Shown here piece after piece: positions 10,308 through 62,789 of a stretch of DNA of 64,000 nt (the stretch's first letter is position 1; each line of letters starts with the position of its first letter). Both the position numbers and the translations under genes were made by a program. The stretch covers positions 23,064,001 to 23,128,000 of the forward strand of contig OZ024742.1 in the NCBI GenBank assembly GCA_964016885.1, read 5' to 3'. The DNA comes from Eledone cirrhosa. Taxonomy: Eukaryota. A model generated the notes under the pieces. It saw nothing but the letters and a program-made list of their open reading frames with translations. It was not told the DNA's origin and did not search any database.

Positions 10308-12540
10308 TTGAATAGGTTTGATATGTTTCGGCCAATATTGGCCCAGGCCATGTCTAACTTAATAACACCACTTGGCGAAGTCTTACAAATCAGTATTTGG
10401 GCACCATGGCCCACTCGAGCAGAGAGTTATTGTTTACGCAGGTATATACGTGTGTAGGAGGCTTATCCGGGATTTCTTGAAAGAATTTATCCAAAGACTT
10501 CTTGAACTTGCTGGCGTCTGTCTCTGCTTTGATGTGTTTTGGTGTAATGTTAAAGTGTGCAGAGGTCAATTGAGGTGAAATAATTATGCCGTATTGTTGT
10601 TATGTGATGCGAGTGGGATTTTTGTCGTGGGCGGATAGCACGGGGCCCAAGCGTTGGGTGTACACTAAATGTGATGCCAACATCATTTGGGCTAAGCTGA
10701 TGGAATATTTTCCAAATCATACAGATAATGTATCGCTCACGGCGACGTTGAAGAGAATAAAGTTTGAGCTTTTCTAATCGACCCCAAAAGTCAAGGCCTG
10801 TCATACCAACTATCTTTTTTGTAATTGACCTTTCGGGTGCTTCAACTTTCATGATACTTTGTTTCGTGTGGGGTGACCACAGTGGACAACAGTATTCAAG
10901 GTGGGGTCGGGCAAAAGTGGAGAAGAGAAGGACAACACTGTGGATATCTCGCGACTGGAAAGTTCTGAAGATCCAGGAACACATTCTGCGGGTCATATCA
11001 ACTTTGCTGTTTACATTAGTGGCCCAGCTTATATTGTTGTCCACAATTACTCCCAGGTCTCTGATGTTTTTGGAAGCCACGAGAGTTTCACCCGAAGGAA
11101 GAGAGTATGGTAGTTTCAGGGCATCCTCTTTTTCGAAGTGGATTAATTCAAATTTATCCTCATTCAACTGCATATTATTCATCTCTGCCCATTGGATAAC
11201 AGCCAGTAGGTCTAACTGAAGGTAAGTCCGGTCACCCACCTCATTGATGACCCTTTGGAGCTTGGAATCATCTGCGAAGATTCTGATGTTGCTGTGTTTG
11301 ATGATGTCAGTAATGTCATTAATGTAGATGATGAAAAGAAGTGGGCCCAACACAGTGCCTTGTGGGACGCCACTGCGGACTTTGGCAGGGATTGATTCTA
11401 CTCCTTCGACTACATGCTGGGTTCAGCCTGTCAGGAAACATTTGATCCACTGTAGTAACCTTCTAGAGACACCAACTTCGGATAGTTTTTTCAGTAGAAT
11501 CTTATGATCAACCCTGTCGAAGGCCTTGCTGAAATCAAGGTAGATGACATCAGTGTTGGAGCCCTCTCCCAAAGCTCTCAGAACATGGTCAAAGTGAAAG
11601 TGATGCAAGAGCTGCGTTACGCAGTCCCTTCCATTACGGAATCCATGTTGGTTGGAGTTCAGCAGGCCGTTGCTTTCAAGAAAGTGGGTTATTCGTGATC
11701 TCACCACCCTCTCAAATACCTTGATTATATGAGAGGTGAGTGAGATCGGACGGTAGTTCACTGCAAGGGACTTATTTCCCTTTTTGAAGACTGGGACAAC
11801 GGACTGGGACAGAAGGTTTTCAGGAATATAGCCAGTGTCCAGTGAGTTTCTCCACAGATTAACACGAGGAGTTGCAAGTTGGTGTCGACACACCTTCAGG
11901 ACACAAGCAGGGAACCTGTCGGGGTCTACTGCTGAATTGTGTTTAATTTCATTTATTGCCGCTAAGACATCAGGGGCGCGAAACGTTATGTCTGATATAG
12001 TGTGTTGGGGGTTAATATCACTGATACGGCCGCGATCGACCATATCAGGGTTGCTGAAAACAGAGCAGTATTGTTTCTGCAGTATCTCGCCCATGGTTTT
12101 GGCATTGTCCTGGAGTGTGCCATTTTCATCAACTAGGGGGCCAACAGTGGAGACGGTGACCTTGTGTTTTTTAGCGAATGAGAAGAACACATTGGGGTTG
12201 TGTTTGATTTTCTCAATGGCCAACCTCTCTTCAGCTATTCTCTGGTTATTGATGATGGTCATCATGTATTGCTGCGGGTTATATTTTTTTTACTCCAGCA
12301 GCGTGATAACCATTGAATGTTTGCGTTGCTGTTGGCAGTATCTTAGTGTGTTAATTTTTTTGTTTGTTCTTTTTATTTTTCTGATAATTGTTTTTCTGTT
12401 TTGGGGGATACTGCACTTGGTTTTGTTCACAGGTTTTGGTGGGGTGTATTTTGTACATATATTTTTGACAGTGTCTACCAAGATCTGCCAAGATGTTTTG
12501 ATGTTGGTGGAAGTGTGTGCGTGTGTAAAAGACCTGCCGA
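10306..12540 (-). mobile_element. CR1-type LINE, 5'-truncated, frameshifted ORF2 reverse transcriptase
   Basis: ORFs 11423-12265 and 10550-11353 contain NYRPISLTS, YLDFSKAFDRVDH, LGPLLFIIYIND, FADD, RDLGV, RPHLEYCCPLWSPH and LYSLQRRRER. The 3' end has a short tandem tail. Confidence 0.92.
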
Positions 12541-42428: not shown

Positions 42429-42580
42429 ATACTTTGGGAGGGTCATGTTGCCAATAAGAAACACACGCACCAGTTGCTTTCACTTCAATTTATTATTATA
42501 ATAAATTTATAATAAATTTATAAATTTATAAATTTCTGGTTGGTTGGTTGGTTCCACAACCAGATAGTTGTTTCTATATT

Positions 42581-42623
42581 GTCATAGTTCTTTCGTCACA
42601 CACTCTGTGACCTCTTCAGTGAC
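42581..42623 (-). ncRNA. Minimal hammerhead in the Penelope pLTR
   Basis: GTCA CTGAAGA G GTCACA GAGTG TGTGAC GAAA GAAC TA TGAC. Confidence 0.75.
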
Positions 42624-42824
42624 TGGGGATTCCTTTCTTTGTTTCTGTGCCTCTCCTTTGTTCTGTCCTACGCCATTTTGTTTCTGTGTGTGTGTTGTGT
42701 GCTCAGTCTGCGCATGCGCCACATCCGGGTGTCTGTGTGTGTTTATGTTCATTTATTTATTTGTTTATTTACATGTTACTGGTTGGTTGTTTGTTCTATG
42801 TGTGTGTGTGTTTTCATTTTGTCC

Positions 42825-43883
42825 TTAATTGTAAGTTGTGATGTTGCTGTTCCACTCATATTTTCTATTTAATTTTGGTTGTAATTCTTTTATGTTTATT
42901 GCCTCTGTAATTTTTCTAAACATTGCGTCTTTTCTGTGTGTAGATTCTATTTTTATTTCTATGTTCTCTAATTTACCCTTGTGTTCTATTTTAGCATGTT
43001 GGTAGAGTACAAATGATTCTTTACTATCTTGAAGGTCTCGCCAGTGTTCATTTATCCGTACCCCTACACTACGAGCTGTCTTACCTTTGTACACTATATT
43101 TTTGTCTCTACATTGTCCTTCAGTACATCTTATGCTATACACTACATTTCTAGTTTTACAGTTAATATGGGGGCTTATTTTACAGGTTATACATTTCTTA
43201 TCTATACATGAGGGTCTTTGAAAAGGGTATGTCTTGCTAATAAGTGTTTTTACGGAGGTACCTGGTCTTTCTACTATCTTAATAGTGAGTTTATGTTTAT
43301 TTAGGGCCCTTCTAAATGTGTAAGCTAATTCACCTCTGGGGGATGTATCGATGAACATTACACTCTGGTATTTATTGCTATCATACCATGAGTTTATTCT
43401 ATTAGCCTTGTTCCTAGTTCTTTCTATTCTATTCCAAAATTTGCTCCTATACAAGGGGCAGGTCCCATTTATGTCATTATTTACCATTTTTTCCCATTTG
43501 GTTCTGGCTCCTCTATACACTCTGATTTTATCTCTCTGATTGTAGCCAGAGAACTGCATACGGTGGATGAAGTGTTGTATGTGTCTATCTAGTTCTTCGG
43601 GGTTGCACATGCGGGACACGTTTCTCATCACCCGTACCAAATCCGCAATCAGTATGTTGATTTTGGTATGGTCCGAAACGGCCGAGTTTCGGTGGATCAG
43701 ATGTTTGGAAGTCATTGGTTTGGCATAATGGGAATGGAGGATTTGTTTTTTGTTATTAATGGTATCTAACCAGAGCTCTGTGTCTAGTACAGGTAATCGA
43801 TGGTTGGGGTGTTTACTTGGGTAGTCTATAGTAACTCTAATGCTCTGGTGGATGGAGTTAGCTATTTGCTGGATGCTTTCCAT
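42825..43883 (-). pseudogene. Penelope RT thumb, Cys-rich linker and GIY-YIG endonuclease (YIG mutated to YKG)
   Basis: LPVLDTELW..HYAKP, CIDKKCITC..CKTRNVVYSIRC..YKGKTARSVGVRINEH. Confidence 0.88.
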
Positions 43884-44436
43884 TGAGTTTTTCCTCTAGT
43901 TCCTGACTGTTCTCTAGTGTGGGTGTCTTAACTACGATGTTTATATCATCGATGTAACGGGAGTACATTATCAGGGTTAAGGGGTCTTCTAATTGTTCTT
44001 TAAGCTTAAGTTTAAGTCTACTGTCCCACCATACCATGAATAAGTTAGCTATGTCGCCTGCAATGCTAACACCAATGGCTGCTCCTTCCTCTTGGGCATA
44101 TGTTTTTCCATTAAATTTGAACATATGTTCCTTAAGGGTTAGTTTTATGCTGGCCCCTACCGCATGTGCAATCATTTTCTTCAGTTCATCGTGGTTTTCG
44201 GGTGTCCGTATGACTCTGGTCCACCCGTTCCATCTATCTGTGTGGGTTTTCTTTGCCATTGAGGTAATGGTAGGTGGTCTGCCTCTTGCTGGTCTTGTAG
44301 GGCCCAGGTTGCTAAGGTTATATGTGCCTAGGTAATTATTACTATAGGTAAGTTTAAGTAGGAGTCCCAGCTCACTGGTATCAATCCCACGGAACTCAAC
44401 ATTGCTCTCACTGATCATTTCTACGCATTTCTCCAC
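43858..44436 (-). pseudogene. Penelope RT core fragment, frameshifted relative to the downstream ORF
   Basis: YAQEEGAAIGVSIAGDIANLFM and YSRYIDDI. Confidence 0.88.
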
Positions 44437-44554
44437 AGCAAAATCCCACTAGAGAACAGTCAGGAACTAGAGAAAAACACAATGGAAAGCATCCAGCAAA
44501 TAGCTAACTCCATCCACCAGAGCATTAGAGTTACTATAAACCAAATGGGAAAAA

Positions 44555-45217
44555 ATGGTAAATAATGACATAAATGGGACCTGCCCCTTGTATAGGAGAA
44601 CATTTTGGATTAGAATAGAAAGAACTAGGAACAAGGCTAATAGAATAAACTCATGGTATGATAGCAATAAATACCAGAGTGTAATGTTCATCGATACAAC
44701 CTCTGGAGGTGAATTAGCTTACAAATTTAGAAGGGACCTAAATAAACATAAACTCACTATTAAGATAGTAGAAAGACCTGGTACCTCCGTAAAAACACTT
44801 ATTAGCAAGACATACCCTTTTCAAAGACCCTCATGTATAGATAAGAAATGTATAACCTGTAAAATAAGCCCCCATATTAACTGTAAAACTAGAAATGTAG
44901 TGTATAGCATAAGATGTACTGAAGGACAATGTAGAGACAAAAATATAGTGTACATAGGTGAGACAGCTCGTAGTGTAGGGGTACGGATAAATGAACACTG
45001 GCGAGACCTTCAAGATAGTAAAGAATCATCTGTACTCTACCAACATGCTAAAATAGAACACAAGGGTAAATTAGAGAACATAGAATTAAAAATAGAATCT
45101 ACACACAGAAAAGACGCAATGTTTAGACAAATTACAGAGGCAATAAACATAAAAGAATTACAACCAAAATTAAATAGAAAATATGAGTGGAACAGCAACA
45201 TCACAACTTACAATTAA
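44555..45217 (+). pseudogene. Inverted duplicate of the GIY-YIG domain (VVY-YIG intact)
   Basis: NVVYSIRC..YIGETARSVGVRINEH..RQITEAINI..PKLN. Confidence 0.88.
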
Positions 45218-45418
45218 GGACAAAATGAAAACACACACACACATAGAACAAAAAACCAACCAGTAACATGTAAATAAACAAATAAATAAATGAACATAAA
45301 CACACACAGACACACGGATGTTGCGCATGCACAGATTGAGCACACAACACACACACAGAAACAAAGTGGCGTAGGACAGAACAAAGGAGAGGCACAGAAA
45401 CAAAGAAAGGAATCCCCA

Positions 45419-45461
45419 GTCACTGAAGAGGTCACAGAGTGTGTGACGAAAGAACTATGAC
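45419..45461 (+). ncRNA. Minimal hammerhead in the Penelope pLTR (second arm)
   Basis: Same motif as 42581-42623. Confidence 0.75.
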
Positions 45462-45694
45462 AATATATAAACAATTATCTGGTTGTGGAACCAACCAACC
45501 AGAAATTTATAAATTTATAAATTTATTATAAATTTATTATAATAATAAATTGAAGTGAAGGCAGCTGGTGCGTGTGTTTCTTATTGGCAACATGACCCTC
45601 CCAAAGTATAACAATATCCGTTTCAACACACGATTTCAGATAAAGAATCTTGCTAAACAAATTCAGAAACGAAATATATATATATATATATATA

Positions 45695-46016
45695 TTAGAA
45701 AGTGAGGTTTTTTTTACAAAATGAAAAATAACCGTGGTGTCCTACACGAGTGGAAGTATAAAGAAAAAGGGATGAAATCGAAAATGCAACTGAAGTCTTA
45801 TTTTTTAAAAAAATATATATATTTATTTGGTTCCTTTACCGGTTTCGCAGTTCTTCTGCTTTTCAAAAGATGTGAGAAAAACCACAGACCCTCCATCTCA
45901 ACTCACCTTTTGAAAAGCAGAAGAACTGCGAAACCGGTAAAGGAACCAAATAAATATATATATTTTTTTTTTAAATAAGACTTCAGTTGCATTTTCGATT
46001 TCATCCCTTTTTCTTT
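45695..46016. mobile_element. Family D fold-back element with U3-A8 hammerheads (45833-45870 minus, 45906-45943 plus)
   Basis: CCTT TTGAAAA GCAG AAGAA CTGC GAAA CCGG TA AAGG. Arms are ~110 bp. Confidence 0.8.
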
Positions 46017-46035
46017 ATATATATATATATATATA

Positions 46036-46821
46036 GAAAAATACTGCAGGTAGCACATGGATAACATGTAATAAAATGAGTCCCTCATCTGTGATTTGCC
46101 GACGATCATAGGTATTTCATTGCATTAAAAATCATATACCTCACGTCGGTGCAATAATAACCAAAATGAGTTATTAGGACAATTGAAACGCGTAAAGCGA
46201 GTGAGACAGGAGAACAACAAAGAGTATAGCTAACCGTAGGGGAAAGAAACAAGCTTCAAAATTATTATGTTTAGCATAAGCTAGGTGAATATATGGCGCT
46301 TTAGAAAAAAGACCTGACACGAACGATGGCCATGTGAGAAGAGAGAAAAATAGCCTTCGTGGTGTACAGGATGAAATGAAGAGAGGAGAAACAGTGAGTG
46401 AGTGAAAGTGTGAGGAAGAGTTAACTGACATGACAGAGGGGGCGAAAGAAGGTAGGAGAAACAGAGAGAATGGGGGAGCAGTAAGAGAGAGAGAGAAAAA
46501 AACACAGAATCGCAGTTTGGGTAAATATATGTAATAAAATATAGAGAAAAATACTGCAGGTAGCACATGGATAACATGTAATAACATGAGTCCCTCATCA
46601 GTGATTTGCCGACGATCATGAATATTTCATTGCATTAAAAATCATATACCTCACATCGGTGCAATAATAACCAAAATAAGTTATTAGGACAATTGAAACG
46701 CGTAAAGCGAGTGAGATAGGAGAACAACAAAGAGTATAGCTAACCGTAGGGGAAAGAAACAAGCTTCAAAATTATTCTGTTTAGCATAAGCTAGGTGAAT
46801 ATATGAGCGCTTTAGAAAAAA
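46036..46821 (-). mobile_element. Partial tandem element (period 510 bp) carrying the permuted hammerhead-like RNA twice
   Basis: 46036-46310 is repeated at 46546-46821. Motif at 46080-46180 and 46590-46690. Confidence 0.8.
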
Positions 46822-51929: not shown

Positions 51930-52000
<71 letters not shown>

Positions 52001-52003
<3 letters not shown>

Positions 52004-52893
52004 AATAATGGAGCTGCGGCGCTGCAAATGGGTTACATATGAAAAAGTTTGTTCTCATCAGTGGCCATCCAACCGTCGTAGGCATTTCGTCGCATTAAAG
52101 GCCATATACCTCAGGTTGGTGCGAGCAACGGCTAAAAAAAGTCGTTGGGACACGTAAATAAAGGGGATGCTAGGGTAAACAAACAAAATGGTTTAAGCAG
52201 CAGAAAGTGATGAAGAAGGAAACAATTCCCAGATTTCTATGAATATAAATTCGGTGGAATCGTTAACGAGAGAATAAAGACCATCAAACCTGGTTGAAAT
52301 GTGAGCAAGGAAGGAATTTCGCACAGGTCTAACGGAAGGAAGAAGGAGTCTGGTCTGCGAATTCGGTAAACATAAGTTCTGTGAAGTCGCAAACTCTCTC
52401 TGTTAGCCTCTTCCTCACCTTTCACTCACTCACTCTCTGACCCCACCTCTCCTCCTCCCCTTTCTTCCCGTTTGACCTGTCCGTAATCCTTTTCTCGCGG
52501 GCACCCAGCCAAGCCGGTATGAATTTTTTTTCTCTCTCTCTCGTTTGCGACTTCACAGACCTTATGTTTACCGAATTCGCAGACTAGACCCCTTCTGCCT
52601 CCCGTTAGACCTGTGCGAAATTCCTTCCTTGCTCACATTTCAACCAGGTTTGATGGTCTTTATTCTCTCGTTCACGATTCCACCGAATTTATATTCATAG
52701 CAATCTGGGAATTGTTTCCTTCTTCATCACTTTCTGCTGCTTAAACCATTTTGTTTGTTTACCTTAGCGTCCCCTTTATTTACGTGTCCCAACGACTTTT
52801 TTTTAGCCGTTGCTCGCACCAACCTGAGGTATATGGCCTTTAATGCGACGAAATGCCTACGACGGTTGGATGGCCACTGATGAGGACAAACTT

Positions 52894-52900
<7 letters not shown>
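52001..52900 (-). mobile_element. Fold-back element with ~355-bp arms carrying the permuted hammerhead-like RNA
   Basis: Arms ~52037-52393 and ~52543-52900. Motif at 52051-52151 (minus) and 52786-52887 (plus). Confidence 0.82.
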
Positions 52901-52953
<53 letters not shown>

Positions 52954-62484: not shown

Positions 62485-62789
62485 AGAAAGTGAGGGGTTT
62501 TTACAAAATGAAAAATAACCGAGGTATCCTACACGAGTGAAAGTATAAAACAAAAGATGAAATCGAACATGCAACTGGAGTCTTTTTAAAAAAAAATATA
62601 TATATTTATTTGGATCCTTTACCGGTTTCGCAGTTCTTCTGCTTTTCAAAAGTAGAGTTAAGATGGAGGGTCTGTGGTTTTTCTCACATCAGAAGAACTG
62701 CGAAACCAGTAAAGGATCCAAATAAATATATATATTTTTTTAAAAATAAGACTCCAGTTGCATTTTCGATTTCATCTTTTTTTTTTTAT

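Follow-up and report, generated by a model that had tools for sequence, protein, structure and literature searches.

The genome of the animal Eledone cirrhosa carries a non-circularly permuted hammerhead motif, its conserved blocks in the order S-G-C, that is likely to be a self-cleaving ribozyme folding in cis around a kink-turn and standing once in each unit of non-autonomous, non-coding, retrozyme-like tandem retroelements. As read from the DNA, the block order, the core, four covarying helices, a kink-turn consensus, tandem units, the copy number and fixed-AT 3′ ends are all evident, and the motif very probably represents a real ribozyme lineage. It was flagged in a 64,000-nt stretch of chromosomal DNA (the window), where the original prediction had described a new topology with cleavage strand, GAAA and CUGANGA in the order C-B-A. 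That order is confirmed by the sequence, but the claim of a new topology falls, because C-B-A is the published type SGC of Eckert et al. 2023 (PMC10085705), who divided the hammerhead into blocks C, G and S. What is new here, on sequence grounds, is this known block order in a different wiring and a different setting, that of animal chromosomal repeats.

The flagged locus and its neighbours in the window

The plus strand across the flagged element reads as originally given, with CUGAUGA at 52877 (Table 1). The 5′ hairpin that had been proposed is present, although not fully paired, with one A-C mismatch in the flagged copy. A closing helix is also present but is best drawn differently in this copy: the GUCC/GGAC pairing proposed before consumes G10.1, and we prefer UGUC/GACA because it leaves G10.1 free for C11.1. 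Stem III, thought to have 6 bp (AGGTAT/ATRCCT), has 5 bp instead; the sixth pair, A52827-U52858, occurs in 13 of 45 aligned copies and was rejected, its bases belonging to a kink-turn-like loop. The cut after 52833 stands as a prediction, by analogy to known hammerheads.

Two diverged family B copies on the minus strand, 510 bp apart, were confirmed where the original prediction had placed them, and their 71-nt core spacing is identical to that of the flagged copy. One of them (46080-46180) has A in place of U4; U4 belongs to the conserved hammerhead core, from which we judge the effect of the change, and this copy is probably inactive. We regard both as decayed members of their family, because they have changes of their own and the family's commonest form has an intact core. 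A fourth copy, absent from the original prediction, is nearly identical to the flagged copy and lies in the opposite arm of the same inverted insertion. The family A repeat that contains the flagged copy ends 68 nt past the predicted cut, running into (AT)n.

The window DNA is microsatellite-rich, with LINE-like and Penelope-like reverse transcriptase frames; broken LINE-like frames lie at 10550-12289 on the minus strand. A short, AT-rich palindromic repeat with inverted arms (45858-45978, about 62540-62700, and locus L287) resembles a small non-autonomous DNA element.

Table 1 Ribozyme copies, repeats and parts of the flagged element (window positions)
Feature	Position	Strand	Basis
Family B repeat flanked by (AT)n runs; roughly 1.6 tandem copies of the 510-bp unit	46016..46821	-	
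Family B ribozyme copy, U4 to A	46080..46180	-	sequence
Family B ribozyme copy, intact core, weakened stem III (two G-U pairs)	46590..46690	-	
Family A repeat, minus arm of the inverted insertion that has 52394..52901 as plus arm; ends in (AT)n	51987..52393	-	
Fourth ribozyme copy, family A; one closing-helix change	52050..52152	-	sequence
Family A repeat, plus arm of inverted insertion; 5′-truncated unit	52394..52901	+	sequence comparison
Flagged S-G-C hammerhead (family A), complete motif with both closing-helix arms	52785..52888	+	sequence and pairing
P0 closing helix, 5′ arm; partner 52885-52888	52785..52788	+	sequence
5′ hairpin, branch of four-way junction; absent in family D	52790..52812	+	folding
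5′ splint strand c; partner 52844-52848, distal stem II position	52814..52818	+	covariation
Helix d, 5′ arm; partner 52864-52869; non-canonical arm of inferred kink-turn	52819..52824	+	covariation
Kink-turn positions 3n, 2n, 1n	52825..52827	+	subfamily conservation
Block S: stem III arm, U16.1 (52832), A17 (52833), stem I arm	52828..52838	+	alignment
Predicted cut site	52833/52834	+	analogy to known hammerheads
Linker from stem I to stem II; final four bases UUAA	52839..52843	+	subfamily conservation
Block G: c′ arm, C11.1 (52849), GAAA (52850-52853), stem III arm	52844..52857	+	alignment
Kink-turn bulge L1-L3, then G1b, A2b, 3b	52858..52863	+	subfamily conservation
Block C: stem I arm, CUGAUGA (52877-52883), G10.1 (52884)	52872..52884	+	alignment

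Copy number and families

The 3.0-Gb Eledone cirrhosa genome was searched with a pattern that specified only U-A, YGAAA and CUGANGAG at fixed spacing, the reversed pattern serving as control. The fixed-spacing pattern gave 6144 matches against 22 for the control, and a looser pattern 8589 against 99; the anchor of one family alone matched 4723 times. The element is therefore far above chance in the genome. This places the S-G-C order in the chromosomal DNA of an animal in thousands of copies, where a plausible job for such a hammerhead, as predicted here, would be the cutting of retrozyme multimers.

The loci analysed were the first listed places, mostly on contig C1, and are a sample of the whole set. 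They gave 131 distinct sites, reduced to 120 by dropping 11 with a microsatellite 5′ part, and these contained 88 distinct cores, 86 of which fall in nine subfamilies of at least two copies (A, B1, B1b, B2, C1-C3, D1 and D2). A further family, E, has a different spacing (195 pattern matches; control, 0). Families A and B were gathered by plain similarity as well as by patterns. What they have in common is the ribozyme (72% over 103 nt) and one 28-nt segment, the rest being short low-complexity matches; because the two families otherwise share almost no sequence, we conclude that selection has acted on the ribozyme motif. In a family B subfamily (L288-L290), the 3′ arm of helix d is one base longer in all three copies fetched.

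Among viral and metagenome contigs, the fixed-spacing pattern found 4 and 112 loci, respectively. The best of the 113 that could be scored (out of 116) pairs at 14 of 22 positions, compared with at least 17 in 107 of the 120 genome copies. As this pairing is below that of nearly all Eledone cirrhosa copies, these loci look like chance, and no convincing relatives with the same spacing were found in viral or metagenome contigs.

Core and covarying helices

We aligned, without gaps, the 45 natural copies closest to the subfamily majorities and scored 22 pairs, which comprise those of stems I and III and of helices c and d together with 10.1-11.1. The original prediction that the helices covary held in this larger alignment, for all four core helices and across nine subfamilies. 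Pairing was found in 89.6% of the 990 cells, compared with 67.9% after shuffling and 28-47% with slid partners. Stems I and III were each paired in 93% of cells, with double changes in four of five pairs each, and helix d in 90.4%, with double changes in five of six; helix c was the weakest (79.6% of cells, double changes in four of five pairs). Double changes were seen in 17 of the 22 pairs, although the count of such pairs was not above shuffle (139/500).

Because kinship inflates double-change counts, four disjoint pairs of subfamilies were compared. In these contrasts pairing was kept by 15 double and 3 single changes and broken by 2, with co-change P values of 0.0035, 0.1, 0.00088 and 0.00033. 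A column-pair screen in which G-U was freely allowed produced many false pairs; the stricter screen used in its place, with subfamily D2 left out, retained 13 of the 16 variable pairs that had been predicted, compared with 5 of 842 other column pairs.

The CUGANGA and GAAA cores are invariant in all nine subfamily majorities. They were fixed by the patterns for families C and D but are independent for families A and B, whose similarity collections agree at all core positions. The U16.1-A15.1 pair is U-A in 45 of 45 copies, both bases being pattern-fixed; this pair and 10.1-11.1 have no independent weight in families C and D because the patterns constrain them. With G barred by the pattern, each of the nine subfamilies has A or C at position 17; in family E, where the script left this base free, 18 well-paired sites have A in 13, C in 4, U in 1 and G in none. 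The linker reads UUAA in every one of the nine subfamilies, and the collecting patterns did not require it.

Stem II had been proposed to consist of one G-Y pair and a multiway junction with the 5′ strand, and the alignment supports this. The 10.1-11.1 pair is G-C in 18 and G-U in 27 of 45 copies (both bases pattern-constrained), G-U being the form in the commonest family, and is followed by a three- or four-way junction. The five bases 5′ of Y11.1 pair with the 5′ strand, and the next bases of that strand, without interruption, are the partner of the extra helix. Bases 3′ of G10.1 are, by eye, complementary to the far 5′ end, with letters that differ by family. Energy folding with the core masked did not recover the 4-bp closing helix in families A-C; energy does predict it in subfamily D2 and in all four copies of family E that were folded. 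The 5′ hairpin folds in seven of seven A-C representatives, and the junction is four-way in families A-C and E; family D lacks the hairpin. The ribozyme fold is not recovered by minimum-energy structure prediction, which gives the flagged copy z = -1.0. The single proximal pair of stem II, and a closing helix that is not energy-predicted in families A-C, both count against our main reading.

A kink-turn consensus next to stem III

Where stem III joins helix d, the 3′ strand has three variable bases and then G-A, and the 5′ strand reads N-(G/U)-A. This matches the consensus of kink-turns, standard and Kt-23 type, which have a three-base bulge followed by G1b-A1n and A2b-G2n; where a base other than G stands at 2n, it is most often U (Huang and Lilley 2016, PMC5061560). 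In contrast to the kink-turns described there, the motif here extends stem III of a hammerhead, and its kinked structure is one that we infer. G1b, A2b and A1n are invariant in nine of nine subfamilies, none of them required by the patterns, and L1-L3 are variable; 2n is G in five subfamilies and U in four. No standard pair forms at 3b-3n in 36 of 45 copies, and C-G adjoins the bulge in the canonical helix in 31 of 45. The flagged copy has C at 3b, and kink-turns of this kind fold in Mg2+ alone (PMC5061560). The original prediction contained neither this signature nor the retrozyme-like tandem context with its thousands of copies, nor the further families. Families B and D1 have U-U at 3b-3n, which we take to be the box C/D kink-turn type that needs protein. 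We found no description of a hammerhead combined with a kink-turn in a literature search that covered few subscription journals.

A repeat derived from a box C/D snoRNA was considered and rejected: in those RNAs boxes C and D lie close to the 5′ and 3′ ends, respectively, the order here is reversed, N7 varies, and no snoRNA match reached the gathering score at five loci.

Both strands of stem III run into helix d, and the far end of helix d is tied to stems I and II through linkers of 0, 2 and 5 bases. By a crude triangle, which is not a model, the end of helix d would lie about 42 Å from the core if straight and about 19 Å away with a 50-degree kink. Family E keeps the block order and the splint, and all four helices are kept in 18 of 30 sites, with the kink-turn bulge strand in 0 of 30. 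Mostly, it has about eight bases on the 5′ side versus one to three on the 3′ side between the scored 5-bp helix d and stem III; as paired here, family E has a one-sided bulge where families A-D have the kink-turn. That two different bends occupy one place argues for folding in one molecule. The kink-turn and the one-sided bulge would be a natural pair of designs for closing a scrambled ribozyme fold. Family E (L296-L325) is an older S-G-C family with a long closing helix.

The same ribozyme might instead build its active site between two copies, in adjacent units or in two molecules, with the hairpin loop of one docking into the open junction of the other. The copies do stand in tandem, amphibian retrozyme hammerheads cut efficiently only as dimers (PMC7229834), and Eckert et al. 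note an apparent difficulty in reconciling some SGC connections with the crystal structure (PMC10085705). We consider assembly of this sort unlikely, however, as the conserved bend (kink-turn in families A-D, one-sided bulge in family E) is needed in cis and not obviously in a dimer, and published constructs with one SGC ribozyme cut during transcription (PMC10085705).

In the cis fold that we favour, helix d and stem III would form one long hairpin, bent at the kink-turn, and the bend would return the base of the hairpin to the outer ends of stems I and II. The hairpin loop would pair with the 3′ strand (stem I and G10.1-Y11.1) and with the 5′ splint (helix c), and the closing helix would tie both ends, giving a closed three-armed fold within one molecule. 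Cleavage after position 17 (52833) would then cut multimeric transcripts into unit-length RNA, which would circularise, and a Penelope-like reverse transcriptase/GIY-YIG protein would copy the circles into (AT)n sites, priming 65-125 nt past the cut.

Tandem units and insertion ends

The ribozyme occurs once per non-coding tandem unit of 500-620 bp, and the repeats end in (AT)n. Copies are spaced by 610-624 bp in family A and about 495-537 bp in family B, with unit GC contents of 45% and 38%. No ordinary-order core (CUGANGA before GAAA) was present on either strand of the family A and B monomers. The longest ATG frames have 123 and 116 codons and are not related between the two families; in the monomers (L016 and L045) these sense frames start inside the ribozyme, 20-26 nt past the predicted cut. 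A coding role for such short, low-complexity frames found no support, and they are probably incidental.

In family A, 25 of 29 3′ ends fall at +68, +115 or +118, and in family B 15 of 24 at +102 or +123, mostly running into (AT)n in both. Genomic 5′ ends are scattered, with no pile-up at the cut (+1 in 1 of 49 for family A and 0 of 40 for family B). Insertion junctions judged by eye at 13 distinct loci, among the matches listed, lay upstream of the site in two, at the site in two and downstream in nine, a split that AT microhomology and short-copy bias explain as well as cleavage does. Segments are longer than one unit in 17 of 49 cases (family A) and 22 of 40 (family B), so templates were read through at the cut site; such templates fit circles and uncut multimers equally. 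Because priming 65-125 nt past the cut would give linear cut units short copies only, the template of these longer segments was circular or uncut.

Penelope-type insertion is marked by AT-rich targets and internal priming (Frangieh et al. 2024, PMC11167929) and by 5′ truncation and inverted arms (Craig et al. 2021, PMC8557442). The (AT)n 3′ ends, scattered 5′ ends and inverted arms seen here read as marks of this type of insertion.

These insertion patterns also bear on whether the fold, though real and under selection, lacks catalytic activity or has lost it, and serves as a docking structure for the Penelope protein or for a kink-turn-binding protein. Priming sites 65-125 nt past the motif would suit such a role, as would insertions that mostly read through the site, 5′ ends that do not mark the cut, and the minimal stem II. 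We nevertheless think it unlikely: the invariant columns cover every hammerhead core position (partly pattern-fixed, with the A and B similarity collections in agreement), the helices correspond exactly to stems I and III and no other conserved helix conflicts with them, and position 17 avoids G where it was left free, in family E.

Penelope-like elements

The window holds a Penelope-like element at 42541-45501, with reverse transcriptase and GIY-YIG frames and 963-nt inverted arms. At its end is a type I hammerhead of ordinary, minimal form, whose stem III has two pairs (plus strand, 45419-45461), and a mirror copy of this hammerhead lies on the minus strand near 42580-42625.

It is conceivable that the S-G-C repeats are detached pLTRs of an autonomous Penelope-like family that uses the same ribozyme, and hence by-products, not self-contained retrozymes. 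Animal retrozymes have been proposed to derive from pLTRs (bioRxiv 10.64898/2026.07.22.740005), and nematode Naiad consensus 3′ ends have, by eye, non-circular hammerheads (PMC8557442). In a single case, moreover, a family E unit adjoins a 5′-truncated Penelope-like ORF without an (AT)n spacer (L328, minus strand, about 1490-2861; L301), a junction that may have arisen by template switch. Against this origin, to which we give little credence, the three Penelope-like coding families examined carry ordinary-order hammerheads; the Penelope-like family of the L328 junction has one on the sense strand in 12 of 30 loci, and the sole S-G-C unit in those 30 loci is the junction itself. Nor was an autonomous element with an S-G-C ribozyme found among the Penelope-like families examined, and three Penelope protein queries against the 1.5-kb flanks of 209 loci gave no ORF starting directly after the motif.

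A Penelope ORF beside L013 was considered as an autonomous partner; Naiad-like at first sight, it has a C-terminal GIY-YIG-like domain and an ordinary-order hammerhead, and was not linked. Positions 1-3700 of L328 hold a tandem repeat of about 428 bp with CUGACGA and then GAAA in most units. Loci L326 and L327, 470 kb apart on contig C2, are identical over 3.5 kb and inverted, through a recent duplication or an assembly duplicate.

Relation to known hammerheads and retrozymes

Type SGC ribozymes cleave in vitro at the predicted site, at 0.007-0.19 per minute; a core mutant loses cleavage, and four stems were rescued (PMC10085705). As reported there, SGC RNAs come only from metatranscriptomes, and among all the RNAs of that study one weak GCS candidate lies in the genome of a known organism. 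The published type (HRIMA-1, type-SGC variant) and the element here have in common the S-G-C order, a complete core, a short linker between stems I and II, and an extra helix immediately 5′ of the second (3′) stem I arm. In the published form, however, the RNA starts at stem III, stem II, which lies between blocks G and C, has 5-6 bp, and the extra helix (the stem I-II interaction) pairs with the strand 3′ of stem II, whereas here its partner lies 5′ of block S. The element here further differs in being genomic DNA in thousands of copies, with one proximal stem II pair, a distal stem II and extra helix built from the 5′ strand, a closing helix and the kink-turn signature. A re-coded version of the published SGC descriptor, which asks for at least two further stem II pairs between G and C, fits none of the 155 distinct sites; once those stem II pairs are no longer required and 11.1 and N7 are relaxed, it fits 81 of them. 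Because the wiring differs and the descriptor fits none of the sites, the element is type SGC by order yet lies outside the published families. Our literature search, with few subscription journals covered, found SGC, CSG or other non-circular hammerheads in Eckert et al. and in papers that, from the text available, seem just to cite it (for example, PMC13725137), and nothing on an S-G-C motif in the literature on cephalopod hammerheads.

As the original prediction anticipated, models of types I-III miss the element: the best 150 of 317 Rfam rows include no hammerhead, and none reached the gathering score at five loci. The type I hammerhead is the defining feature of the non-LTR retrozymes described so far, and type I descriptors were used to find them (PMC7229834; bioRxiv 10.64898/2026.07.22.740005). 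Type I-III descriptors and the published SGC descriptor undercount retrozymes and Penelope ribozymes.

The S-G-C repeats resemble the non-LTR retrozymes of animals (Cervera and de la Pena 2020, PMC7229834; Li, Clavereau and Pollet 2026, bioRxiv 10.64898/2026.07.22.740005) in being non-coding tandem units with one hammerhead each, and in their GC content below 50%, thousands of copies and co-resident Penelope-like elements. The published retrozymes carry a type I hammerhead, whereas the S-G-C units are without any ordinary-order core; circular RNA has been shown for the former and is predicted for the latter. In a related study, one of nine predicted retrozyme dimers cleaved in vitro (bioRxiv 10.64898/2026.07.22.740005). 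The terminal-repeat hammerheads of Penelope-like elements (PMC8557442, PMC11167929) resemble the present ones in their (TA)n targets, 5′ truncation and inverted 5′ arms, and in internal priming downstream of the ribozyme (PMC11167929); those described are of ordinary order and on coding elements, whereas the S-G-C motif here is on non-coding units.

A broader proposal, which we advance tentatively and on balance doubt, combines two claims: that the ribozyme is a closed three-armed cage formed in cis, in which the kink-turn replaces the loop-loop contact and may let a protein of the 15.5K/L7Ae family switch cleavage on; and that non-circular hammerheads are widespread and overlooked in animal Penelope-type elements (S-G-C here, C-S-G in nematode Naiads).

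Craig et al. described Naiad elements as being without canonical hammerheads, some of them marked as core or half-core only (PMC8557442). Within File S5 of that work, read by eye, S-G-C was not seen in the Naiad passages that, by file order, may be cephalopod. The consensus 3′ ends of six nematode Naiads in the same file appear, also by eye, to carry complete type-CSG hammerheads; these six had been marked as core, half-core or not at all by the authors. This C-S-G observation bears on why Naiads seemed to lack hammerheads.
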